A program made the position numbers and the translations under genes. The notes beneath the pieces are model-generated. The model did no database searches, was not told where the DNA came from, and saw nothing but the letters and a program-made list of their open reading frames with translations. Below, piece after piece: positions 2,342-45,039 of a stretch of DNA of 64,000 nt; position 1 is the first letter of the stretch, and each line of letters begins with the position of its first letter. Origin of the DNA: a virus (Duplodnaviria; Caudoviricetes); the IMG/VR virus record IMGVR_UViG_3300002307_000018, positions 128,001 through 192,000 of that record; one strand, written 5' to 3'.

Positions 2342-2628
2342 AAACTAACGCAGATCAAAAAGCGTACGCTGAATGGTATGGCAATACACAGGCTAGAATC
2401 AATACAATAGTTGGCGGCAGTTACAGTAGTCACTGGAACGCAATCAAACAAGCTCGTCAAGACTGGCTAGACACTATATCAGATCCACATACAGGTGATC
2501 CCACATTTCCCGTGTGGTTACAAGACAAGTATGGCATCAAGTTGATTCAACTGGATAGCGGACTGAGTACTGATTTTGATGTAGTAGACGAAAGCAAGTA
2601 CATTATGTTTCTTTTAAAGTATAAATGA
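2338..2628 (+). CDS. Small 'LRW-tail' family protein (array A, member 5)
   Basis: WLQDKYG and C-terminal YIMFLLKYK; ATGA coupling. Confidence 0.65.
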   Translation: MKTNADQKAYAEWYGNTQARINTIVGGSYSSHWNAIKQARQDWLDTISDPHTGDPTFPVWLQDKYGIKLIQLDSGLSTDFDVVDESKYIMFLLKYK

Positions 2629-2924
2629 GCGAAGAACAAAACAGAATACATCGTGCTTTACACAACTTCACTGTTCATAAAAACTATGAACATGAAATAG
2701 AATTTCCCGCTCCAAACAGACTAAGCTACAATCACGCTTACGCATGGGCACTAGAGAAGTTTGGCAAACCCGGCGACACTTGGGACTTTTACATTCTCAA
2801 GCGATATGTGGCTCCAACATTAACCAATCGCTATAATGTTCACAGACAGCTAGAATTGTGGGTAGATGTATTTGGATTTGAACGATCAGAAGATGCCACC
2901 ATGTTCATTCTAAGATGGTGCTAA
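2625..2924 (+). CDS. Small 'LRW-tail' family protein (array A, member 6)
   Basis: WALEKFG and C-terminal FERSEDATMFILRWC. Confidence 0.75.
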   Translation: MSEEQNRIHRALHNFTVHKNYEHEIEFPAPNRLSYNHAYAWALEKFGKPGDTWDFYILKRYVAPTLTNRYNVHRQLELWVDVFGFERSEDATMFILRWC

Positions 2925-6132: not shown

Positions 6133-6411
6133 ATGAAAGAACACACAAGAGAAGCACTACTTATTCTACAAGAAGAATGCAGTGAAGTTACACAAGCCAC
6201 TTCAAAGTGCTTTAGGTTCGGCATAGACGGTCTATATCAAGATTGTTCTAACCGTGATCGATTGGAACAAGAACTGGGCGATGTATTAGCAATGATTGAT
6301 ATCTTAGTCAGTCAAGGGCTTGTTTCTAGCGATGCACTACAAGCAGCCAAGCAACGAAAATTCAAAAAGCTTCAGCAATGGAGTACAATCCCACGTGAGC
6401 ATATGGAGTAA
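6133..6411 (+). CDS. MazG-like nucleotide pyrophosphohydrolase
   Basis: EECSEV...ELGDV acidic motifs. Confidence 0.7.
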   Translation: MKEHTREALLILQEECSEVTQATSKCFRFGIDGLYQDCSNRDRLEQELGDVLAMIDILVSQGLVSSDALQAAKQRKFKKLQQWSTIPREHME

Positions 6412-6413
6412 TC

Positions 6414-6731
6414 ATGGAAGTCGTAATCGCTATAGTGTTAGTAGTAGCAGTATTCGCTGGTGGTTTCTACTTGGGATATGTTCGTTGTAGTCGGGACATG
6501 ATCAATGAACTTACCGAGTTAGTAATGGACAACATCATTGATCTAACCTATGAGATTGTTGACGAACAGCATTTTCTATATTATGTAGAAAACGAAGAGT
6601 TCGCAGCACAGGGTGCAACATTAGACGAGGCAGCTAAGAACTTTAGCAATCGTGACGAGAATATCGGACGCTTTATGTCTCCTCTTGGAATTCCCATGTT
6701 CATTGTCAACGGTAAGATCGAGACAGAATGA
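6414..6731 (+). CDS. Hypothetical protein with N-terminal TM helix
   Basis: Hydrophobic N-terminus; GGAG RBS. Confidence 0.6.
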   Translation: MEVVIAIVLVVAVFAGGFYLGYVRCSRDMINELTELVMDNIIDLTYEIVDEQHFLYYVENEEFAAQGATLDEAAKNFSNRDENIGRFMSPLGIPMFIVNGKIETE

Positions 6732-7066: not shown

Positions 7067-7476
7067 AACAAAAATTCATTGACCTTTACATGAACCTGGC
7101 CGAAAGTGTCAGTCAAATGAGTACAGCAGTCAAACTCAAAGTAGGTACAGTCATTGTCAAAGATCATACTATCACGTATGGCTACAATGGTACACCCTCG
7201 GGTTGGGACAATAACTGTGAGACAGTATTATCGGACGGGTCACTCAAAACAAAACCAGAAGTGTTGCACTCAGAGGCAAACGCTCTGATGAAGATCGCTA
7301 AGAGTACCATCAATAGCGAAGGCGCAACCCTATTCTGCACACACGCACCCTGCATTGACTGTGCTAAGATGATCCATCAAGCTGGTATCTTTAGTGTATA
7401 CTATCGGAATGAGTATAGAAGTACAGACGGTATCAACTTCTTGGAAAAAAGTGGGATCACTATTCAGAAAGCCTAA
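7063..7476 (+). CDS. cd: dCMP deaminase
   Basis: GYNGTP, HSEANA and APCIDC zinc motifs. Confidence 0.88.
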   Translation: MKQKFIDLYMNLAESVSQMSTAVKLKVGTVIVKDHTITYGYNGTPSGWDNNCETVLSDGSLKTKPEVLHSEANALMKIAKSTINSEGATLFCTHAPCIDCAKMIHQAGIFSVYYRNEYRSTDGINFLEKSGITIQKA

Positions 7477-7678
7477 GAAAGAGCCATTCAAACATAACAG
7501 CGTCATACAGCTTGCTCATGGCCAGCTTGATCCTGTGCTTGAATGGTGCAACGAACACTGCGTGGGTGAATGGGGCTGGATGGATCATACTGATTTTGAA
7601 AAATCACTTAATAATCATTGGATATTCTTATTCGATAACGATGTTGATTATACGTACTTTCTATTACGTTGGAAATAG
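7451..7678 (+). CDS. Small 'LRW-tail' family protein (orphan; start uncertain, GTG 7451)
   Basis: EWCNEHCVG...W...FDNDVDYTYFLLRWK. Confidence 0.6.
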   Translation: MGSLFRKPKKEPFKHNSVIQLAHGQLDPVLEWCNEHCVGEWGWMDHTDFEKSLNNHWIFLFDNDVDYTYFLLRWK

Positions 7679-18250: not shown

Positions 18251-18621
18251 GTACAACTCCACCACTTACAATCAACACAGGAGCAGGCGTTGCCGGTAGT
18301 TCTGGTATCGGCGGTCAAATGCTGATACTTAGTGCCAACGGACCGCAATGGAACAAATCTGGCATCGACACCTCTTTGGGACTTTTTGTCAAGGGTGACG
18401 CTGAGATTGGGGGCACACTAACAGTGGGCGGGCAAGAAATCACCAAGACAATTGACGAACGATTATCTGCCATTGAAGAGCGTCTTGGCATTCTCAGAGT
18501 AGACGAAAAGCTGGCAGATCGCTGGGCAGAATTGGGCGAATTGCGTAAACGCTATAGAGAATTGGAACAAGAGTGCTGGGAAAAGGACGAAATCATTCGT
18601 TTGCTCAAGGGAAAAACTTGA
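18247..18621 (+). CDS. Hypothetical protein with C-terminal coiled coil
   Basis: ATGA-coupled ORF. Confidence 0.55.
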   Translation: MSTTPPLTINTGAGVAGSSGIGGQMLILSANGPQWNKSGIDTSLGLFVKGDAEIGGTLTVGGQEITKTIDERLSAIEERLGILRVDEKLADRWAELGELRKRYRELEQECWEKDEIIRLLKGKT

Positions 18622-18646
18622 CAATAAATCCCACTTGTGCTATAAT
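18618..18646 (+). promoter_or_regulatory. sigma70-type promoter
   Basis: TTGACA-17-TATAAT with extended TG. Confidence 0.8.
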
Positions 18647-29214: not shown

Positions 29215-29243
29215 ATTATACCCTATGTTGTTATTGTTGTCAA
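29215..29243 (-). promoter_or_regulatory. sigma70-type promoter
   Basis: Perfect TTGACA-17-TATAAT on minus strand. Confidence 0.85.
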
Positions 29244-29660: not shown

Positions 29661-29926
29661 AGTCCGCCTCCACAAGCGTGTATTTTACCCGTCAACAGCC
29701 CTGTACTGTATGCTGTTCTCCAACCATTTGGAGTTTCTATCCACCGCAAATTCTCAAATCCACAAACTCTACACTTGACTGACTTAGGTTCATAATGATA
29801 GTAATATGCACCCGTTCGATCACGTCTTCTTCCGCTGCTAACCCAGTCTTGATATTCCTCCCAATCATCACGATATTCTTCACCGAAGAATCCATCACCG
29901 TTCAGTCCACCATCGAATATTCCCAT
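29657..29926 (-). CDS. Small zinc-finger-like protein
   Basis: CRVCG...H.C; TAATG coupled. Confidence 0.5.
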   Translation of the reverse strand: MGIFDGGLNGDGFFGEEYRDDWEEYQDWVSSGRRRDRTGAYYYHYEPKSVKCRVCGFENLRWIETPNGWRTAYSTGLLTGKIHACGGGL

Positions 29927-30234
29927 TATGCCCACCGTAACATAAATTTTACTACATCTTCTTCTTTAGCAATCATGATTCTATTATAAAACAAAAAGAA
30001 TCCGTTGTCAAGCTTTTCTTCTGCCCATAATTTTATTTCGTCATGATTCACACTTCTGGCATATTCTGAGAATTTAACTTCAGTCCATTGACTACCCTGT
30101 GGGTTAACTTTTCTCATAATATCTAACAAAACACTCCAGTCGATCTCTTGCTGTATATCCTTAGCCAACTCATTCAATGACTCATCACTATTGTCAAAGC
30201 CTGATGTATTAAACGATGCCTTAAGAGTTTTCAT
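29926..30234 (-). CDS. 'LRW-tail' family protein (array B, member 13)
   Basis: C-terminal EEDVVKFMLRWA. Confidence 0.7.
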   Translation of the reverse strand: MKTLKASFNTSGFDNSDESLNELAKDIQQEIDWSVLLDIMRKVNPQGSQWTEVKFSEYARSVNHDEIKLWAEEKLDNGFFLFYNRIMIAKEEDVVKFMLRWA

Positions 30235-30446
30235 AGCCACCTCATTGCAAATAGTGTAAAGTCTTTACTGTCGCAAAAAGAAAACCCAATGTAGTGCATA
30301 GTATTACTCCAGCGATGTCCGACAATGCCAAATTTTTGTTGACACCATTCACGAACCTCCATGTAATCTTCATACGACATTGAATCTTGGATGACTGCGT
30401 GATATCGCCAGTATCTTGCTGCTTTTCTTCTTTGATGACTGTTCAT
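30231..30446 (-). CDS. 'LRW-tail' family protein (array B, member 12)
   Basis: EWCQQKFG...RW...FTLFAMRWL. Confidence 0.75.
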   Translation of the reverse strand: MNSHQRRKAARYWRYHAVIQDSMSYEDYMEVREWCQQKFGIVGHRWSNTMHYIGFSFCDSKDFTLFAMRWL

Positions 30447-30646
30447 AACCATCGTAATGCAAACATTGTTGCATCTTCTCCTGTTTTAAAATAGTAGTAG
30501 GTACGATTAACCACGTACCATCTGTCACCATGTATACCGAATTTTTTTATCATCCAGTTGATACATTCACGAAATTTCTTTTCCTCTTGCATGTTGTACA
30601 ATGTTATCATTTCTGGCCATATTTCTGCTTTTAGTTTTCTTGTCAT
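30443..30646 (-). CDS. 'LRW-tail' family protein (array B, member 11)
   Basis: WMIKKFG...RW...EDATMFALRWL. Confidence 0.75.
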   Translation of the reverse strand: MTRKLKAEIWPEMITLYNMQEEKKFRECINWMIKKFGIHGDRWYVVNRTYYYFKTGEDATMFALRWL

Positions 30647-30897
30647 AACCACCTCAACATGAATAATACCTTTTTCTCTTCAGTGTAGGTTTCTTTTCGC
30701 AATTCAAAAGCCGCAACCCCACCAGTTCTCTCTGACCAATGATTACGCAGCTTGACTTGAATATCATGTTGTTCGCACCACACAATCACATCAACAATCT
30801 CATTGAGTTGACAACGAACTTGTACGATTCTATTGTGCAGTTCATGAAATTCTTCCATCCACAATTTGAATTCTGGTGTATTGATATCAATTTCCAT
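30643..30897 (-). CDS. 'LRW-tail' family protein (array B, member 10)
   Basis: VWCEQH...KVLFMLRWL. Confidence 0.7.
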   Translation of the reverse strand: MEIDINTPEFKLWMEEFHELHNRIVQVRCQLNEIVDVIVWCEQHDIQVKLRNHWSERTGGVAAFELRKETYTEEKKVLFMLRWL

Positions 30898-31127
30898 TAT
30901 GCCCACCTCAATGCAAATTGTACTGCGTCATATTCATAAGCAAAGTCAAATCGACCATGACCAACGTATCTCCAGCGTACAGAACAAACAAGAGGAGATA
31001 TTTGCTGACCTCCAGGAGTGATCGTTCGATAAAAACTGGGCTGCCCAAATTTCTCCCGACACCATACTCTAGCCTCGGCCATATATGTAATGTCATGCTG
31101 ATCGGATACAATGTTAACAGTATTCAT
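30897..31127 (-). CDS. 'LRW-tail' family protein (array B, member 9)
   Basis: VWCREKFG...RW...DAVQFALRWA. Confidence 0.75.
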   Translation of the reverse strand: MNTVNIVSDQHDITYMAEARVWCREKFGQPSFYRTITPGGQQISPLVCSVRWRYVGHGRFDFAYEYDAVQFALRWA

Positions 31128-31408
31128 GCCCATTTCAATAAGAAAAATGTAAAACCCGACTCGTCATCAAATCTAAGTTTTGTTTTGTAGTCTCTGGTTT
31201 GGTCGACAATTGGGACACACTCACCACCAAACGGTTTGAGTTCACGGCTGATAATCTCGTTTTGTCTCTCATAGTCCATGTACTCGCTACCACGCTCCCT
31301 AACGTTTACTTCATGACAGTTAAAAATCATGTTGCGCCACCAACTAGGAACATGGATATCTGAAGGCTCCTGCCATGTAGGAGCATCTACCCAATAGTAT
31401 TCTTTCAT
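31124..31408 (-). CDS. 'LRW-tail' family protein (array B, member 8)
   Basis: C-terminal FDDESGFTFFLLKWA. Confidence 0.7.
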   Translation of the reverse strand: MKEYYWVDAPTWQEPSDIHVPSWWRNMIFNCHEVNVRERGSEYMDYERQNEIISRELKPFGGECVPIVDQTRDYKTKLRFDDESGFTFFLLKWA

Positions 31409-31623
31409 AGCCACCTCAATGCAAACATTGAAGCGTTCTCTTCACGAGCAAAATACCACCAGTATTCTTTGGTTTCTTCTGAGTAGTAACACAACCATGG
31501 GTGTGAGTCATCAACGGTCTCTCGTGAAAAGGCCACCCATCCAAATTGTTCTCGGCACCATTTAGCACATTCTGTGAGTTGTTTGATTCCCATCAATTTA
31601 GTTTTTAGTATTACAGCGATCAT
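31405..31623 (-). CDS. 'LRW-tail' family protein (array B, member 7)
   Basis: KWCREQFG...EENASMFALRWL. Confidence 0.75.
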   Translation of the reverse strand: MIAVILKTKLMGIKQLTECAKWCREQFGWVAFSRETVDDSHPWLCYYSEETKEYWWYFAREENASMFALRWL

Positions 31624-31865
31624 GCCCATCTCATTAAAAATAAAGTTACATCTTCTGAATTTTTGAAAAATAAATTGCTACGTTCGTCCATTGAAATAGA
31701 CCAACGAACGTTATCTTCGTTTATATATCGTGAGTTTGTACCAAATTTCTCACGACACCACGTTAAAATAGTATTGAACTCTTGAGTAGACATTTTTGGT
31801 GGTATTCCAACTCTACTCCATACCGTTCCATTTGATCTATGACAATCAGTTATTTTAAATTTCAT
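31620..31865 (-). CDS. 'LRW-tail' family protein (array B, member 6)
   Basis: TWCREKFG...RW...EDVTLFLMRWA. Confidence 0.75.
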   Translation of the reverse strand: MKFKITDCHRSNGTVWSRVGIPPKMSTQEFNTILTWCREKFGTNSRYINEDNVRWSISMDERSNLFFKNSEDVTLFLMRWA

Positions 31866-32074
31866 TTCCACCTCAGCGCAAATAATACTGCGTCTTCTTC
31901 ATTCATAAATGAGAACTTGCCCATACCAATATATCCCCACCGGCCGCTGCCATCGATTGGGTAATGACTCACTCCAAATTTTTCCTCACACCAAAGTACC
32001 GCATCATCTACCGGTTCACGCCTGCGTGATATCGACGGAAATTGGTATTGCATTTCAATCTGTATCGGACCCAT
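31862..32074 (-). CDS. 'LRW-tail' family protein (array B, member 5)
   Basis: LWCEEKFG...RW...EEDAVLFALRWK; start ATG at 32074 (TAATG). Confidence 0.75.
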   Translation of the reverse strand: MGPIQIEMQYQFPSISRRREPVDDAVLWCEEKFGVSHYPIDGSGRWGYIGMGKFSFMNEEDAVLFALRWK

Positions 32075-32274
32075 TATAGCCACCTCAAAGCAAAGAACAC
32101 CGCTTCTTCTTCGTCCCGAAACTCGAACGTGCCCATACCAACATAATTCCATTTTGGGTTACCGTACATACATGAACCGAATCTATCCTTACACCAGAGT
32201 ATGGCGTTATCGACCTCGACTTCGGGATAGTCCGTCATTTCCCATTTCATGTTAACACGTGTCATACGTTTCAT
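32074..32274 (-). CDS. 'LRW-tail' family protein (array B, member 4)
   Basis: LWCKDRFG...KW...EEAVFFALRWL. Confidence 0.75.
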   Translation of the reverse strand: MKRMTRVNMKWEMTDYPEVEVDNAILWCKDRFGSCMYGNPKWNYVGMGTFEFRDEEEAVFFALRWL

Positions 32275-32510
32275 GACCACCTTAGCGTAAATAGTACCGC
32301 ATCTTCACTTGTTTTAAAATAAAAATGGTAGTAATACAAATTGTCATTCCATGAACCGCTTGTATACCATTTCCGTGTAGACCACGTCATGTCGCTTCGG
32401 CTTTTGCCGTATTTTTTCTCGCACCACTCAACGGCCTGTTTATATAGATTAGGCTCTAGTAAGATACAATATTCGTAATGTTCTAATATATCAGAATTTG
32501 TTATTTTCAT
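32271..32510 (-). CDS. 'LRW-tail' family protein (array B, member 3)
   Basis: EWCEKKYG...KW...EDAVLFTLRWS. Confidence 0.75.
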   Translation of the reverse strand: MKITNSDILEHYEYCILLEPNLYKQAVEWCEKKYGKSRSDMTWSTRKWYTSGSWNDNLYYYHFYFKTSEDAVLFTLRWS

Positions 32511-32683
32511 ACCCACCTCAGTGCAAAGAACACTGCGTCTTCTTCCCGTTTAAATACGAACTCACCATGCCCAAGATAATTCCATTTGCCCGGCAATTTG
32601 CCGAATTTATCAACACACCAAAGTATAGCATCATCGACAATGGTATTATTGCTGAAGCCGTATTGTATTTGAATTCGTGTCAT
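32507..32683 (-). CDS. 'LRW-tail' family protein (array B, member 2)
   Basis: LWCVDKFG...KW...EEDAVFFALRWV. Confidence 0.75.
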   Translation of the reverse strand: MTRIQIQYGFSNNTIVDDAILWCVDKFGKLPGKWNYLGHGEFVFKREEDAVFFALRWV

Positions 32684-32898
32684 ACCCACCTCAACATAAA
32701 CAGTACGGCATCTTCTTCACGTTTAAACTCAAACGAACGCTGACCACAATAAACCCATCTGCCATTCTCACTAAAATTAGTCGTTGACAATTGTTCAAAG
32801 CCAAATTTCTCATAGCACCAATCATACGCAGCAACCGGCCAGGGTCCGGGAAAAGAAATCCTAGTCCAACCACTATGATACGTGGATAGATTGGTCAT
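32680..32898 (-). CDS. 'LRW-tail' family protein (array B, member 1)
   Basis: DWCYEKFG...RW...EEDAVLFMLRWV. Confidence 0.75.
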   Translation of the reverse strand: MTNLSTYHSGWTRISFPGPWPVAAYDWCYEKFGFEQLSTTNFSENGRWVYCGQRSFEFKREEDAVLFMLRWV

Positions 32899-33254
32899 GC
32901 AGGCATCACAAATTCATCAACATGCCGACACTTGGCACGGAACTTGAATCCGCTGCAAGAACATGACAGTTTAAGACCGTGACGTTCGATTGTATAGGTA
33001 CTGCCAGATGACGATTTAATTTGCCACGAGTTAGCAGTATTTACCAATTTGGGTTCGACATAGCCGAAGGTATTGGCAACTTCTGTAAACTTGCGGCGTC
33101 GAACATCGAACGGCAAGGGTTGCTTGAACATTTCAAGTACAGTAGTGCCAGAACGAACATAGCCCAACATCTTTTCCTTGCTATCAACAACAAGGTAAGT
33201 ATGATTAGGCGTTTGAGTAGTCCACTCTGTACGTTCTTGTAAAAATTTTGTCAT
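32895..33254 (-). CDS. SWIM-type zinc-finger protein
   Basis: CSCSGF...CRH. Confidence 0.65.
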   Translation of the reverse strand: MTKFLQERTEWTTQTPNHTYLVVDSKEKMLGYVRSGTTVLEMFKQPLPFDVRRRKFTEVANTFGYVEPKLVNTANSWQIKSSSGSTYTIERHGLKLSCSCSGFKFRAKCRHVDEFVMPA

Positions 33255-33685
33255 CAGCAGTCCTCGGCTTCCAGTTTCATGGCTTCTTCAACTGACACAA
33301 AATCAATTTCGCCGTAGGTAACTTCCCAGAATTCTCCGTTGAAGTAGTAATTATACTCTTCTCCTTGAAATTCGTCAAAGTATTCGGTTGTATTGGTAAA
33401 CGTGTTTGGTTCGGTATCTTCGTCGCCACGATCACGACCATAATACACGCATACGCCATTTTGCGCTACTTTAAAGTTATGAATTCCGACTTCAGGATTG
33501 GGCGTGACACGTTCTGCCAGTACTGACAGACTGCCTTTGCTTACCAAAAATTCAGCGGCAAGTAGTGAGTTATAGTGTGTCATCAACATTTTGCCAACGC
33601 CAGACAAATAGCCATCAAAGTGACAGTAGATTTGCGATACGGTTCCGTCTTCATGTTTCACAGCGATAGTTGAGCGAGTAGCCAT
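33254..33685 (-). CDS. Conserved phage early hypothetical protein
   Basis: MATRS.I...IYCHFDGY motif. Confidence 0.65.
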   Translation of the reverse strand: MATRSTIAVKHEDGTVSQIYCHFDGYLSGVGKMLMTHYNSLLAAEFLVSKGSLSVLAERVTPNPEVGIHNFKVAQNGVCVYYGRDRGDEDTEPNTFTNTTEYFDEFQGEEYNYYFNGEFWEVTYGEIDFVSVEEAMKLEAEDC

Positions 33686-33734: not shown

Positions 33735-33935
33735 TTAGAAAAAATCGCCAGCGAAATAGTCAACTGGGAGACCCAGCAAGTCGCACAATTTTGTGGGATT
33801 GCCGACTGCACCCTCACGTTTGGCGATCCAGCGAATGGCGCTCAAACGATCATGATAGCCATTGCTCATGACGAGAATGTACTTAATACGATTCTCAAAT
33901 TCGGTCACTGCCTGATTTTCTAATTGAGTATACAT
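33735..33935 (-). CDS. Hypothetical protein (paralogue of C-terminal half of 33970..34347)
   Basis: AIRWIA...LGLP.DYFAGDF. Confidence 0.6.
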   Translation of the reverse strand: MYTQLENQAVTEFENRIKYILVMSNGYHDRLSAIRWIAKREGAVGNPTKLCDLLGLPVDYFAGDFF

Positions 33936-33969
33936 TGAATTCCTTGATTTGATTTTGAGAATGCAGCGA

Positions 33970-34347
33970 TTAGTTAAAATCGCCGGCGAAATAGTTGTCT
34001 GGGAGACCCAGCACAAAGCAAAAATACGACTGATCATTAACGGCATCTTCAGCCTCAGCTAACCAGCGAATTGCCATGCGGCGATCTTTTGCGCCCGACA
34101 TCAACAGATTTTGAACACGCAGTTCAAAATCGTGAGCGGCTTTAGCCTCGCTTTCTTTTTGACGAATAGCATTGATACGACCCTGTTCACCCAGAGCCGT
34201 AAACTCACGGTCGAAATCCTCAGCAGTCCAAGTAGACGTATCGATGTGACGTGGGCGAAACCCGTGAACAGACTTATAGAAGTCCGAGAATTCCCAACCC
34301 AATTGCTCTAATTCCGTTACTGCAACTGCGCTTTCAAATGTAGTCAT
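33970..34347 (-). CDS. Hypothetical early protein
   Basis: Behind consensus promoter; AIRWLA...LGLPDNYFAGDF. Confidence 0.65.
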   Translation of the reverse strand: MTTFESAVAVTELEQLGWEFSDFYKSVHGFRPRHIDTSTWTAEDFDREFTALGEQGRINAIRQKESEAKAAHDFELRVQNLLMSGAKDRRMAIRWLAEAEDAVNDQSYFCFVLGLPDNYFAGDFN

Positions 34348-34378
34348 TTCTTTATCCGTTTTCTCAGTGTATGTGTAT

Positions 34379-34407
34379 ATTATAGCAGATTTCGGAATTA
34401 AAGTCAA
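34379..34407 (-). promoter_or_regulatory. sigma70-type early promoter
   Basis: TTGACT-17-TATAAT; palindrome at 34414..34431. Confidence 0.8.
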
Positions 34408-34431
34408 CATATTTGTTGTATAAAAACAACA

Positions 34432-36053: not shown

Positions 36054-36082
36054 ATTATAGCAAAAAACTGATTTACTGTCAA
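36054..36082 (-). promoter_or_regulatory. sigma70-type early promoter
   Basis: TTGACA-17-TATAAT with TG extension. Confidence 0.85.
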
Positions 36083-37273: not shown

Positions 37274-37942
37274 TTAATCCTTTTTGTCGCCAAATAGTGA
37301 CAGTAAACTTAAGAAGATGTTGATGAAATTGAGATACAAACTCAGGGCTCCAAGAACCTCAATGCTTGTGGAATCGTCTTCAGATACCATTTCACGAATC
37401 GTCTGTGTGTCATACGCAGTCAAGCCCATGAACACAATGATCGCAACCGCTGAGACTACCATTGCTAACACCGAACTACCGATAAAGATATTGATAATCG
37501 ATGCGATAACAACTGCGATTAGTCCGACAAATAAGTATTGTCCCAGTGTATCTAAGTTTCGTTTGGTAAAGTAACCATAGAAACTCATTGTTCCAAACAG
37601 TACTGCGGCCCCCATAAACGCACTGACAATACTGGCGCTAGTATAGACTACAAAGATAGTAGCGAAACTTAGACCCATTAGTGCTGCGAACCCAAGTAGT
37701 GCCGCTAGTGCCACAGGCATTGGAGGATTGCTACTTAAGAACGGTGTAATGATAAACACCGCAACAAGTGGAGCAAACAGAACTACCCACTTCATAACGC
37801 CAGTAAACAAGAACTGCATAAATTCCGGTGAGGTGCTGGCAAAATAACTAACAAACATACTTGTAAGTACTGCCAGAAACATGTTGTTGTAAACACGTAA
37901 CATGGCATCATTTACTTGTGTTGCTGATTTAACTGCGTACAT
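37274..37942 (-). CDS. yccA: Bax inhibitor-1/YccA family membrane protein
   Basis: About 7 TM helices; TAYDTQ and ALSLYLNFINIF motifs. Confidence 0.85.
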   Translation of the reverse strand: MYAVKSATQVNDAMLRVYNNMFLAVLTSMFVSYFASTSPEFMQFLFTGVMKWVVLFAPLVAVFIITPFLSSNPPMPVALAALLGFAALMGLSFATIFVVYTSASIVSAFMGAAVLFGTMSFYGYFTKRNLDTLGQYLFVGLIAVVIASIINIFIGSSVLAMVVSAVAIIVFMGLTAYDTQTIREMVSEDDSTSIEVLGALSLYLNFINIFLSLLSLFGDKKD

Positions 37943-37963: not shown

Positions 37964-38734
37964 TTACCAATCTGAACTATCAGAACTACTAGAATCACCA
38001 CCCCAATCGCTACTAGAATCGCTCATGCCGAAATTTTGTTCTGGAGCATAAGACGGAGTATAGGATGGTTGATGTTCAACAGGCGCAGCCGTAGCTTTAT
38101 TACCGTTTAGTAGATGATTAGCTAATGTTGCACCGGCAGCTACACCCACGCCCATTGCAGCACCAGTTGCTAAACTACCCATTAGTCCACTACCAGAAGA
38201 TGCAGGAGCACTAACAGCAGCGCCAGCGGGTGCAGGTGGTGTTGGTGTAACAGGTCTGTACTGTGTGTTGTGTGCGTCAGGATATTGCTGATATGGCGAA
38301 TATTGCTGAGCGGGTTTCTTGCGCTTGAATAACATGATCACAATCAACAATGCTAACAGAATACCGCCACCCCATAACATAGCCTTGTCAGTATCAAATT
38401 TCAAAGTGTCGGTTTTCTTAACCCCAAGTGCAGTACGTAGACGTTCTACGCTTTCAGGCTTAGCAAAACTCATTGATGGGTCAAGTGACTGAGATTTTAA
38501 AAACGCAGTCTTTGCCTCGACTTTTTTGCCCAGTTGCAATAGCAAATCACTTTGAACGTAATGTGCTCGTGCGCTGTTAGGTCTAAGCTTGATTACTTCA
38601 TTGACCATTGTCAGTGCTTGTTGTTTATCTACTTGGGCGGTTTTATAAATGTCTTGAACTGTAGGTTCGGCCAATACGATATTGGCAGATAAAACAGCTA
38701 ATGACAGTACTAATGCTTGCATAAGTTTTTTCAT
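37964..38734 (-). CDS. Exported TPR protein with Gly/Ser-rich C-terminus
   Basis: Signal peptide, TPR-like P.SARAHY helices, TM, GSLATGAAMGVGVAAG. Confidence 0.6.
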   Translation of the reverse strand: MKKLMQALVLSLAVLSANIVLAEPTVQDIYKTAQVDKQQALTMVNEVIKLRPNSARAHYVQSDLLLQLGKKVEAKTAFLKSQSLDPSMSFAKPESVERLRTALGVKKTDTLKFDTDKAMLWGGGILLALLIVIMLFKRKKPAQQYSPYQQYPDAHNTQYRPVTPTPPAPAGAAVSAPASSGSGLMGSLATGAAMGVGVAAGATLANHLLNGNKATAAPVEHQPSYTPSYAPEQNFGMSDSSSDWGGDSSSSDSSDW

Positions 38735-42835: not shown

Positions 42836-45039
42836 ACAACTTTCTTCTGACTGTCAATCAGGTTAATGTACTCTGCAAACCGTTCGGAAGAGAATGCAGT
42901 ACGATCAATCGAATTCTCTAACATTTCCAATAGTGGGTAATGCTTGTAACAAGCATCACATTCAATACGTAATTCTTTTCTGCCCTTTTCAATCAACGCC
43001 ATCATGTCAGGATTGTATGCAGTCATCAATACGTTCATTGAATGCTGATCAATTGCAAAGTCTCGTCTAAGATTTTTTACCTTATTGACAATAGTGGCAT
43101 AGGGCGCAGTTTTATCAACAACATAACGAAGAATAGACGTTGTGCTACTATTATACTTGACAAACGGATAGTTGTCAAGCGATCTGGACAACACCGATTC
43201 CACAATACCAGTTTGGTTCTTCTTTAGTACATCAACAATATGATCTTCCAAATTGACCCAGTTTTTCTTGGCTTTGATGGTTTCAATATCAGCCTTACGA
43301 ACACCATATACTGTAATAGTATTTAGAGCGCCAACACCAAAACATTTTAAATAATTGCCAAGATCACTGGCAGATAGACTCCACTTGTACTTGGAGTTCA
43401 TCATGAACCCATTCAATGGCAAGTAATAAAATAAAACGTTGTTGTCAAAGATGCTGCTATTGCCCGCATCACGCCATACCAAGTCATCGCTATTACGGCG
43501 ATATCCACCATCACGACGTTCCAATCGCATGATCGTGACATCACGACTCATTGTCTTACGTTCCTTTTCGTCAAGAGTGCTGACCTTAACGATATTCGGT
43601 GGATTCATGATGTCATTGAAGAATTCCTCAGTCAGCATGGGCTTGCTACGATCTGCCGGTTCAAGCAGAAACACGGTGGCGCCACCATCTCCACGTTTGA
43701 GATTTTGTCTGTAGTGATGCTTACAACGTTCCAGTCCGCCTTTCTTAGTGTCGTTGACTGCAAAGATATGGCTGGCACGTGTTTGAATCCGCATACCATA
43801 GCCCCACTCTGCCAGTGATCTGTTATCATCTGGATTGAGTCTAATGGCAGCATTATCATTGAACATCGAGACCGTTGGTTTGGCTGCATTTCCATTGTTA
43901 ACTTGAAATCCTTTGATAACCAAGTTAAACGTGTTTGCCAAATTGGTCTTGATAAGTTCGATCTCACGAAACGAACCGTACCCGTTACGTGGAGTATACA
44001 GTGTGAACTTGGTAGCAGTCACGTATTTTTCAACCGCAGCAGCCCACAAGCGGCGCCCGTTCAGTCGTTCCAATTCCTTGGCACGTACCCACAAGTTTTC
44101 AATCTTATCAACATCTTCTGTTAACTTAGCGGTCAGTGCGGTATTAAGAGCTTCAAGTTTACGCTTGATAGCATCAATAGTCTGCGGCACATATGATAAG
44201 CCCTCACGACTTGCCTGAAAGTCCAACTCGCCAATACCAAAGTGCATTTCCAACCCGCACTCTAACAGTCCAGATAAGCTGCCCAGTACTGTAACCGAGT
44301 TTGGAACTGCAATAGGGTACGCAATGTTGCCCATAACGGCAAAAGATCGACTAGAATGGCGACTTGCATACTCGTGTACGCCGGGAATAATATCTCGGGT
44401 AGCGTATTCATCTATCGGAACTTGTAAGCCAACATTAGTCTGTGGTTTCAGTGCAAAGTAACGGTAAACTTCACAAGCCTCGTCACGAAACTTAGAGTAA
44501 TCGTACTTGTCATTTACTGAAAACTTGATCTCAACGCCATTGGCTTCATCGGTGGTTTCAGTAGTCATTAGTGCAATTGAGGGCACTCCGTCACCGTTGA
44601 TAAACGCAGAGTAAACGCCACGCACACCATTTTGAACGGCGGCAACTGTGAAGTTATCAGTGTACGAGAATGGGGATTTTGAGCCAAGACCAAGCGCACC
44701 AATAAAGTCGTTCGATCCAGTTTTGGTCGATTCAAAGTATGTGGTGTAAATTTTGGTAACTTGATCGTGAGATAAGCCAATGCCATAATCACGTACGGCA
44801 AACCATGGCTCTAGATTGGTGGGAAGATGTACATCAAATGGTACGGTAGACTTGCCAGCAGCGGCGTGTGAGTCTACGGCATTACATGACAACTCACGCA
44901 CAATGGCACGAATTTTGTTGGCATACAAGCCCGATGATAGAATTGAAAATGCCTTAGCACTGTTGCGAATACGGAATTCCCCGATTTCGCCAACATTACT
45001 AAGAACTGCTTCGTGCGTGGGAGTGTTATTTAAAATCAT
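42832..45039 (-). CDS. rIIA: rIIA-like protein (GHKL ATPase N-terminus)
   Basis: LYANKIRAIVRELSCNAVDSH, DYGIGL, YFESTK, GLGSKS and SREGLSY motifs. Confidence 0.88.
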   Translation of the reverse strand: MILNNTPTHEAVLSNVGEIGEFRIRNSAKAFSILSSGLYANKIRAIVRELSCNAVDSHAAAGKSTVPFDVHLPTNLEPWFAVRDYGIGLSHDQVTKIYTTYFESTKTGSNDFIGALGLGSKSPFSYTDNFTVAAVQNGVRGVYSAFINGDGVPSIALMTTETTDEANGVEIKFSVNDKYDYSKFRDEACEVYRYFALKPQTNVGLQVPIDEYATRDIIPGVHEYASRHSSRSFAVMGNIAYPIAVPNSVTVLGSLSGLLECGLEMHFGIGELDFQASREGLSYVPQTIDAIKRKLEALNTALTAKLTEDVDKIENLWVRAKELERLNGRRLWAAAVEKYVTATKFTLYTPRNGYGSFREIELIKTNLANTFNLVIKGFQVNNGNAAKPTVSMFNDNAAIRLNPDDNRSLAEWGYGMRIQTRASHIFAVNDTKKGGLERCKHHYRQNLKRGDGGATVFLLEPADRSKPMLTEEFFNDIMNPPNIVKVSTLDEKERKTMSRDVTIMRLERRDGGYRRNSDDLVWRDAGNSSIFDNNVLFYYLPLNGFMMNSKYKWSLSASDLGNYLKCFGVGALNTITVYGVRKADIETIKAKKNWVNLEDHIVDVLKKNQTGIVESVLSRSLDNYPFVKYNSSTTSILRYVVDKTAPYATIVNKVKNLRRDFAIDQHSMNVLMTAYNPDMMALIEKGRKELRIECDACYKHYPLLEMLENSIDRTAFSSERFAEYINLIDSQKKVV

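Follow-up and report, generated by a model that had tools for sequence, protein, structure and literature searches.

The window analyzed in this study, 64,000 nucleotides of phage DNA corresponding to bases 128001-192000 of a 264,637-bp IMG/VR record (IMGVR_UViG_3300002307_000018, hereafter abbreviated as G000; record completeness estimate 74%), contains on its minus strand a tandem array of 13 small genes, the products of which form a single protein family, hereafter called the LRW family from its C-terminal Leu-Arg-Trp motif. Three aspects of this array are new: the family is unannotated, very widespread, and anciently diverged; its terminal protein motif doubles as the ribosome-binding site of the next gene; and cassette polymorphism is documented in natural populations.

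Thirteen Paralogous Genes in Tandem

The array spans positions 29926-32898 of the window and consists of consecutive minus-strand genes coding for 58-102 amino acids from their ATG starts. Its 12 internal junctions comprise 10 ATGA and 2 TAATG overlaps, in accord with the initial annotation of this DNA, which had reported 13 genes with overlaps of these types; the preceding gene is joined to the array by ATGA and the following gene by TAATG. The same annotation had proposed one diversified family with a common core and variable N-termini and loops, and this proposal is borne out by profile hidden Markov models (HMMs), by the alignment, and by profile-profile comparison of the most deviant member, g6. 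All 13 members are recognized with E values of 3e-17 to 2e-26 by the HMM built from them, which matched no other frame in the array region; with profile A2, dominated by outside sequences, their values range from 9.5e-22 down to 6e-4. When g6 was compared with the family through an independent alignment of its orthologues (hhalign), the match had 95% probability and E 2.8e-8.

The conserved part of the proteins covers about 55 residues, beginning with one or more strands, followed by a helix bearing W-C-x-x-K-F-G, a hairpin containing R-W and F-x-F, and, as the final helix, E-E-D-A-V-x-F-A-L-R-W plus one residue. The C-terminus [LM][RK]W plus one residue is present in 13 of the 13 members, and the Trp of the W(C)xxKFG helix in 12 of them. 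Every copy differs in its N-terminus and in the loop behind the first helix, both in length and in sequence. The isoelectric points of the members span 4.1-9.4. Paralogues are mostly 20-40% identical and the closest trio 42-55%, which indicates that the duplications are old. This trio, the genes beginning at 31862, 32074, and 32507, had been described as clearly close, suggesting recent duplication; they are indeed the nearest paralogues, but identity of only 42-55% does not make them recent duplicates.

The array was compared with a related 355-kb contig of the Joint Genome Institute (L002), the flanks of which show 91-98% DNA identity to the window. For orthologue pairs between this array and a related phage, the ratio of nonsynonymous to synonymous substitution rates (dN/dS) lies between 0.11 and 0.80, most values being 0.1-0.4 and two near 0.8; the array open reading frames (ORFs) are therefore real coding genes under purifying selection. 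The genes are listed below from the first array member to the last (dS, synonymous substitution rate).

32680..32898, minus strand: g13, 72 amino acids; first array member; protein modelled; 97% identical orthologue in L002
32507..32683, minus strand: g12, 58 amino acids; minimal domain; without L002 orthologue, best match there 51%
32271..32510, minus strand: g11, 79 amino acids; L002 orthologue with insertion in the variable loop
32074..32274, minus strand: g10, 66 amino acids; absent from L002; lake contigs skip g9 and g10
31862..32074, minus strand: g9, 70 amino acids; start at the TAATG junction, not at the longer 96-residue ORF start; absent from L002
31620..31865, minus strand: g8, 81 amino acids; 97.5% orthologue in L002, with the identity block stopping at the g8 stop codon
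31405..31623, minus strand: g7, 72 amino acids; precise cassette presence/absence versus L002 and in a lake contig
31124..31408, minus strand: g6, 94 amino acids; most diverged; own conserved N-terminal region; dS 1.75 versus L002 orthologue
30897..31127, minus strand: g5, 76 amino acids; 89% orthologue in L002
30643..30897, minus strand: g4, 84 amino acids; diverged, without FG motif; 85% orthologue (P0016) on the 355-kb contig
30443..30646, minus strand: g3, 67 amino acids; absent from L002; a lake contig skips g3 and g4
30231..30446, minus strand: g2, 71 amino acids; 85% orthologue in L002, dN/dS 0.79
29926..30234, minus strand: g1, 102 amino acids; last array member; long N-terminal extension; 98% orthologue in L002

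The Ending as Protein Motif and Ribosome-Binding Site

The typical last codons in the array are TTG AGG TGG NNA TGA. The sequence GAGGTGG complements the tail of the 16S rRNA; the A of the last sense codon is also the first base of the following ATG, which overlaps the stop. The Arg-Trp codons AGG TGG, lying within GAGGTGG, thus furnish the following gene with its Shine-Dalgarno site. No other Arg codon is as rare in this genome as AGG, which accounts for 1.5% of the 2,507 Arg codons counted in 184 long ORFs; in the array, however, 9 of 11 LRW arginines are written with it (p about 2e-15 versus genome-wide use). The usual ribosome-binding motif of the genome is AAGGA at -11 to -7, and GAGGTG ending at -4 corresponds to this site shifted along the anti-Shine-Dalgarno sequence, so that the spacing fits. 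Junctions of the GAGGTGG type recur in the arrays of distant relatives. The codon before TGA or TAA ends in A in all 13 array members, and likewise in loci L001-L005; because of the stop/start overlap, the last residue varies solely among A-ending codons (S, A, V, L, K, T).

Three members without a downstream gene, namely 2625-2924 and 7409-7678 of the window and one in L005, keep L-R-W with AGA or CGT as the Arg codon, the ending codons being CTA AGA TGG in 2625-2924 and TTA CGT TGG in 7409-7678. Elsewhere in the last helix, synonymous positions vary freely. Since LRW is retained with other codons where no gene follows, the ending is constrained at both the protein and the RNA level. Judged from this codon usage, LRW is not merely a by-product of the ribosome-binding site as a protein motif, and the embedded site accounts for part of the conservation of the ending. 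Among 170 proteins, including our own copies, orthologues, and profile matches, the C-terminal ends are LRW plus one residue in 113, LKW plus one in 23, and MRW plus one in 10.

Cassette Turnover between Closely Related Phages

Whole cassettes are gained, lost, or replaced at gene junctions between closely related phages. The L002 array has 10 members versus 13 here: eight are orthologues (g13, g11, g8, g6, g5, g4, g2, and g1) with 61-98% protein identity in global alignments, g10/g9, g7, and g3 are absent, and two L002 array genes have no orthologue here. Identity blocks between the two arrays stop no more than 3 nt from a gene junction (32682, 31619, 31405, 30643, and 30451), and the dS of neighboring orthologue pairs ranges from 0.02 to 1.75, indicating a mosaic of different histories. 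Comparable events are seen in lake contigs, with the usual caveat for repeats in metagenomes: one joint (31405->31622) omits g7, another (31882->32302) g9 and g10, a third (30444->30899) g3 and g4, a fourth (32279->32897) g11-g13, and a fifth (30442->32895) nearly the whole array. Copy number and order, which the initial annotation had singled out for comparison across related phages, therefore both differ, in L002 as in the lake contigs. We infer that the mechanism is unequal recombination between conserved 3' ends, of which this pattern of turnover is the expected product. The array stretch is present in freshwater and lake metagenomes from about 10 studies.

A Large Family without Annotation

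Our searches agree with the initial annotation in that no named family fits these proteins, since HMM comparisons with Pfam, PHROGs, NCBIfam, and PDB sequences gave no significant match. With Pfam, nothing exceeded the cut-off for the 10 of 13 array members that were scanned (all but g9, g11, and g12) or for 125 relatives. The best PHROGs match was phrog_9571 for g8 alone (E 0.005), with none of the 125 relatives matching at E<=1e-3; NCBIfam produced no match for the family, and the profile search of PDB sequences returned unrelated proteins only, the best having E 0.53. The RnlB antitoxin (PF15933) was considered for g1 and rejected, the match involving the N-terminal extension alone at 14.6 bits (E 0.041), whereas the Pfam gathering score is 27 bits.

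By contrast with this lack of annotation, the profile search of 1.84 billion representative proteins retrieved 1,810 clusters (50% identity) at E<=1e-3, and in most of the profile matches listed the matched stretch reaches the C-terminus or comes within 1-2 residues of it. Structural look-alikes in AFDB clusters, ESM Atlas, and BFVD are uncharacterized, mostly viral proteins, to which is added one bacterial DnaJ-fusion cluster that has template modelling (TM) scores of 0.64-0.67. The ESM Atlas clusters that carry taxon labels are 90-100% viral, and the BFVD matches are proteins of 'uncultured Caudovirales phage'. From these sequence and structure comparisons, the family is apparently restricted to viruses.

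To locate arrays in IMG/VR we scanned DNA for the pattern of the gene junction, TTTGCNYTGAGGTGGNNATGA, which is found in more than 119 contigs. Among 119 IMG/VR loci, 115 contain members recognized by HMM and 104 contain two or more, the largest locus packing 21 members into 8.4 kb and the longest run being 14; arrays are thus the rule for this family. Individual paralogues are kept as orthologues across many metagenomes. Neither megablast of the region nor tblastn of g13 and P0041 found a match in 50,697 phage records; homologues in cultured phages, which are diverged members, were detected with the profile only. The profile matches 23 proteins of Sinorhizobium phage Phosso, 3 of Pseudomonas phage PA5oct, and 4 of Agrobacterium phage Atu_ph07, but none of coliphage ph0011 (a 121Q-type genome). 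In Phosso and PA5oct, every member that was examined bears the annotation 'hypothetical protein'.

Longer members have N-terminal modules with no Pfam match except Gp23, discussed below. A metagenomic protein of 191 amino acids (P0033) has the family domain fused to N-terminal DUF4116 repeats (Pfam E 2.8e-9), and a search for fusions with P0033 matched nothing besides P0033 itself.

Predicted Fold

The AlphaFold2 model of g13, computed with 125 relatives (predicted local distance difference test score, pLDDT, 77.5; predicted TM score 0.61), is a small two-layer β-β-α-β-β-α sandwich with elements E3-6, E12-15, H22-32, E48-52, E55-58, and H61-71. Many members begin at the second strand, hence the minimal unit is strand-helix-hairpin-helix. 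The corresponding model of g6, for which only 9 orthologues were available, has a pLDDT of 39.6 and is unusable, so that the common fold rests on sequence homology. Foldseek of the g13 model against PDB found nothing with E below 1. The best alignment obtained with VIA-align against 48,161 chains was 2ebb_A, with 5% identity, a root-mean-square deviation of 2.5 over 61 residues, and Z 5.0, which is under the noise level of the method (typical best chance Z 7-8).

The conserved positions (W27, C28, F32, G33, R47, W48, F56, F58, E61, D63, A64, F67, L69, R70, and W71) are mostly of core type, with aromatic or hydrophobic residues; they include one Cys and form no evident catalytic or metal-binding pattern. 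Nearly every face of the last helix (A-V-L-F-A-L-R-W) is hydrophobic, and the largely aromatic and hydrophobic conserved residues may indicate either a docking helix or a simple core helix. The notion that the C-terminal tail is a free degron or docking tag was discarded as unlikely, because the LRW residues sit within the modelled last helix. Homodimer prediction for g13 gave a score of 0.00, which speaks neither for nor against binding.

Further Members and Capsid-Fragment Chimeras

The total of 20 members given in the initial annotation is recovered when the HMM of the 13 array members is run over the window, since its matches at 1317-2921 and 7373-7675 add seven on the plus strand, as follows.

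1398-1676, 1676-1930, 1927-2124, 2126-2341, 2338-2628, 2625-2924, plus strand: second cluster, six small genes
7409..7678, plus strand: solitary member ending in LRWK, after a dCMP-deaminase-like gene (identified by eye alone)

Four of the six genes in the second cluster match family HMMs (the fourth, 2126-2341, at just E 0.005), the other two being weaker and having the ending alone in common. Three of the six, namely 1927-2124, 2126-2341, and 2338-2628, are very diverged and end in SKWK, LRYL, and LKYK. A GC-rich inverted repeat, seen by eye, lies 3' of 7409-7678 and could form a hairpin. The search of the whole 264-kb record with the HMM found 21 significant members plus a few that share the ending alone (about 25).

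Outside the window, about 121 kb before its start, G000 6330-6683 (= L007:1831-2184, minus strand) is an ORF of 117 amino acids with an N-terminus from Gp23, the major capsid protein (PF07068). No other ORF of the 264-kb record matches Pfam Gp23; the match (52-54 bits) covers profile positions 7-61 and is placed by the scan at G000 6477-6653. The ORF fits the family profile weakly and ends in ...ALRFG. It is one of four overlapping genes in a mini-array that includes two true family members and follows a gp46-like gene, recognized by eye. In L122, L035, and L108, true family members carry the same capsid segment before the domain (42-49 bits), and L083 is also a capsid-fragment chimera over the Pfam Gp23 cut-off. 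The N-terminus IxGVQPM occurs in 7 of 543 family ORFs of the IMG/VR loci (about 1%), whereas Phosso gp170 has a different Gp23 segment, profile positions 306-354. These fragments span 40-60 residues and do not amount to a capsid fold. The segment at profile 7-61 corresponds to the Gol region of T4, which is linked to EF-Tu and to the Lit abortive-infection protease. No Gp23 match at E<=1 was present among the 10 scanned array members. The idea that N-termini are copies of other phage genes was tried and rejected, as no member N-terminus matches any other gene of the genome. We read the chimeras as a hint of what some members may bind rather than as the array's function.

Phosso (PV764938.1, ~182.2-182.9 kb; L148:1390-2073) also has an ORF of 206 residues that opens with a Gol-like segment of Gp23 (37.5 bits). 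This segment shares 41% identity with residues 77-117 of the phage's own capsid protein, and the C-terminal part behind it is unrelated to the LRW family; small proteins with capsid fragments are thus not limited to this family. Two ClpP paralogues (G000 126245-126883 and 127296-127895, plus strand) lie 1.5 kb upstream of the 1398-2924 cluster, and a family cluster is also found beside ClpP in PA5oct (gp272 by gp274/275) and Phosso (Clp gp173 by array gp168-172). A ClpP-like ORF is present in only 7 of 119 IMG/VR loci, and therefore this adjacency may be inherited gene order.

Promoters, Neighboring Genes and Source Phage

The window contains six exact TTGACA-N17-TATAAT sites versus 0.03 expected by shuffling. 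These sites, a further promoter candidate, and the genes flanking the array are the following.

2947-2975, 18618-18646, plus strand: exact promoter consensus sites, TTGACA-N17-TATAAT
29215-29243, 29983-30011, 36054-36082, 43150-43178, minus strand: exact promoter consensus sites, TTGACA-N17-TATAAT
33350..33378, minus strand: candidate sigma-70-like promoter, TTGACG-17-TATAAT (11/12), nearest candidate for the array transcript
32895..33254, minus strand: head gene, 119 amino acids, non-family; ATGA-joined to g13; position conserved in L002
29657..29935, minus strand: downstream small gene, non-family; TAATG-coupled to g1; conserved in L002

Exact or 11/12 sites on the array strand lie upstream at 36082, 35387, 34407, and 33378 and downstream at 30011 and 29243, the exact consensus at 29983..30011 being inside g1 and pointing to the downstream genes. 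An exact sigma-70 consensus resembles the host-polymerase early promoters of T4-type phages, and these predicted sites suggest early transcription of the array. The head gene has a weak SWIM-type zinc-finger motif under the cut-off (Pfam SWIM E 0.0035).

In GenBank, the PA5oct homologues EST35_0247, _0274, and _0275 lack the 'ESI-MS/MS' virion note that their neighboring genes have, from which the family proteins would seem to be non-virion. Members in G000 adjoin a gp46-like recombination nuclease and a dCMP-deaminase-like gene (both by eye) and a DNA ligase; those of PA5oct adjoin the annotated ribonucleotide-reductase beta subunit, metallophosphoesterase, and thymidylate synthase; and the recurrent neighbors in IMG/VR loci are UvsW, primase, DnaB-like helicase, Mre11-like phosphoesterase, and exoribonuclease.

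The window also encodes rIIA and an ATP-dependent DNA ligase. For phrog_11058, a gene family repeatedly found beside the small-protein genes in other phage contigs, the closest relatives from cultured phages are those of PA5oct, Atu_ph07, SCTP-2, and Phosso, all four of which are T4-like jumbo phages of 'group 2.2' (Iyer et al. 2021, PMC7824862). Judged from shared neighbor genes, the source phage belongs with 121Q and PA5oct in one broad group of T4-like jumbo phages. Other genes in this minus-strand region include a phage-encoded membrane protein of the Bax-inhibitor-1 family (37274-37942; Pfam PF01027, E 4e-52), adjoined by a gene with tetratricopeptide-like repeats (37964-38734), and two overlapping-frame neighbors (33735-34046 and 33970-34410) that are apparent paralogues with the common C-terminal ending ...IRW[IL]A...LGLPxxYFAGDF.

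Possible Function

The initial annotation had suggested adaptors for anti-defence or host takeover, or subunits of a mixed oligomer; the genomic context, with its exact sigma-70-type promoters and with PA5oct homologues lacking a virion mass-spectrometry flag, agrees with an early accessory role. Our favored reading, held tentatively and with rather less than even confidence, is that LRW proteins act early as non-virion accessory factors whose binding surfaces have diversified. The array would be a battery of translationally coupled cassettes, each with one family member, transcribed early as one polycistronic message, translated by coupling, and expanding or contracting by unequal recombination between the conserved 3' ends. 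A common stable scaffold would present differing N-terminal and loop surfaces, and each member would bind a different target (host factor, defence protein, or phage protein) during cell takeover. Several points weigh against this proposal. No target, partner, or activity was identified, and the searches of PDB by sequence and fold found no characterized relative. The concept of a common scaffold with a variable binding surface is drawn from the pattern of variation, and the conserved residues may only build the core. The broad range of isoelectric points provides no common physicochemical clue; the promoters are known as consensus matches only; and the neighbors in other phages, most of which serve replication and recombination, would agree just as well with participation in the phage's own DNA metabolism.

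This last consideration leads to the alternative that the members serve replication, recombination, or nucleotide metabolism of the phage itself as accessory regulators or adaptors instead of being host-directed effectors, for which the nuclease, ligase, and deaminase-like gene of G000, the reductase, phosphoesterase, and synthase of PA5oct, and the recurrent IMG/VR neighbors all speak. However, copy number and content shift between phages that are 91-98% identical in their flanks, while parts of a core machine are expected to be stable. Small accessory ORFs are generally interspersed among the replication genes of T4-like genomes, which means that the neighborhood says little, and we regard this alternative as unlikely. 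Similarly improbable, in our estimate, is a tie to the capsid, in which the domain would carry or recognize segments of the capsid protein and the members would act as decoys, sponges, or regulators (of host capsid sensors, EF-Tu, or capsid assembly and maturation). It derives from the family-type ORFs with an N-terminus over the Gp23 cut-off (G000 6330-6683, at 53.9 bits, with L122, L035, L108, and L083), the segment 306-354 in Phosso gp170, the IxGVQPM N-termini, and the one family cluster that, in G000, PA5oct, and Phosso, has a ClpP paralogue nearby. Yet chimeras make up about 1% of members, the scanned members of the array and window have no Gp23 match, and their N-termini resemble no other gene of the genome; moreover, the G000 chimera fits the family profile weakly, the Gol-like N-terminus of Phosso sits on an unrelated C-terminal part and so is not domain-specific, and ClpP accompanies few of the loci. 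A more pointed form of this idea, which we consider distinctly unlikely, is that the LRW domain is a carrier of N-terminal peptide 'baits', some copied from the two most conserved segments of T4-type capsid proteins, the Gol region being one, and that the arrays would be early mimic libraries intercepting host sensors or hijacking factors such as EF-Tu. Were this true, cassette turnover at the junctions would be an arms-race record.

The paralogues could instead be subunits of one mixed oligomer or self-assembling structure, as the last helix is hydrophobic beyond the need of a solvent-exposed monomer helix, translational coupling favors roughly equal amounts of product, and the weakly similar DCoH fold makes dimers and tetramers. 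Loci with 1 to 21 copies, and 3 of the 13 array copies without counterpart in a close relative, are hard to square with a fixed stoichiometry, and no supporting prediction was obtained; an oligomer of this kind is very unlikely. Just as little credence is due to the view that the cassettes are largely neutral or selfish duplications, their ending serving only as ribosome-binding site and recombination junction and the proteins having no specific function. Strong codon-level selection at the junction, fast cassette turnover, and dN/dS near 0.8 in two orthologue pairs would agree with it, but LRW is kept with non-Shine-Dalgarno codons in members without a downstream gene, about 50 residues are conserved with varied synonymous codons, most dN/dS values are 0.1-0.4, paralogues persist as orthologues across many metagenomes, and the alignment supports a confident fold in the g13 model.

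If the proteins are indeed accessory binders with diversified surfaces, the LRW family would rank among the larger protein families of aquatic and soil phages that lack annotation, often with 10-25 copies per genome. It shows cleanly, in a natural setting, how a protein motif and a translation signal can occupy the same bases, with the rarest Arg codon fixed there, and it gives a population-level view of a phage gene 'accordion'. The diverged members in cultured phages of Pseudomonas aeruginosa, Sinorhizobium, and Agrobacterium make function directly testable, the capsid-fragment chimeras being a concrete lead to the binding partners of at least some members.

Comparison with Known Systems

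Tandem duplicated small genes have been noted in the jumbo phages G and coliphage 121Q (Hua et al. 2017, PMC5646251). As in those arrays, a giant genome has here been enlarged by head-to-tail copies of one small gene; unlike them, the copies are old (mostly 20-40% identical) and the family is found in at least 1,810 clusters and many phages; the 121Q-type phage ph0011 lacks a member. Bacillus phage G also has a lineage-specific expansion of about 35 zinc-ribbon proteins, predicted to bind DNA (Iyer et al. 2021, PMC7824862). In both cases a jumbo phage has multiplied a small domain, with the proposal that many specific binders result, but the LRW family has no metal-binding pattern and combines an alpha/beta fold with isoelectric points of 4.1-9.4. 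The β-β-α-β-β-α order of elements is the same as in DCoH (pterin-4a-carbinolamine dehydratase), to which the best structural alignment (2ebb_A) belongs. Membership in that family was rejected; Z 5.0 under the noise level and 5% identity, with no Foldseek or sequence match, are no evidence of homology or function. With regard to the Gol region of T4 gp23 (PF07068), a minority of family-type proteins begin with a segment that passes the Gp23 cut-off, whereas the array members scanned do not.

Stop/start coupling through ATGA, with a Shine-Dalgarno site inside the upstream gene, is common to many bacterial and phage operons. The junctions described here differ from this ordinary coupling in that the site is built from the near-invariant Arg-Trp of the family, using the rarest Arg codon of the genome, and this arrangement recurs in LRW-family arrays of more than 100 other phage contigs.

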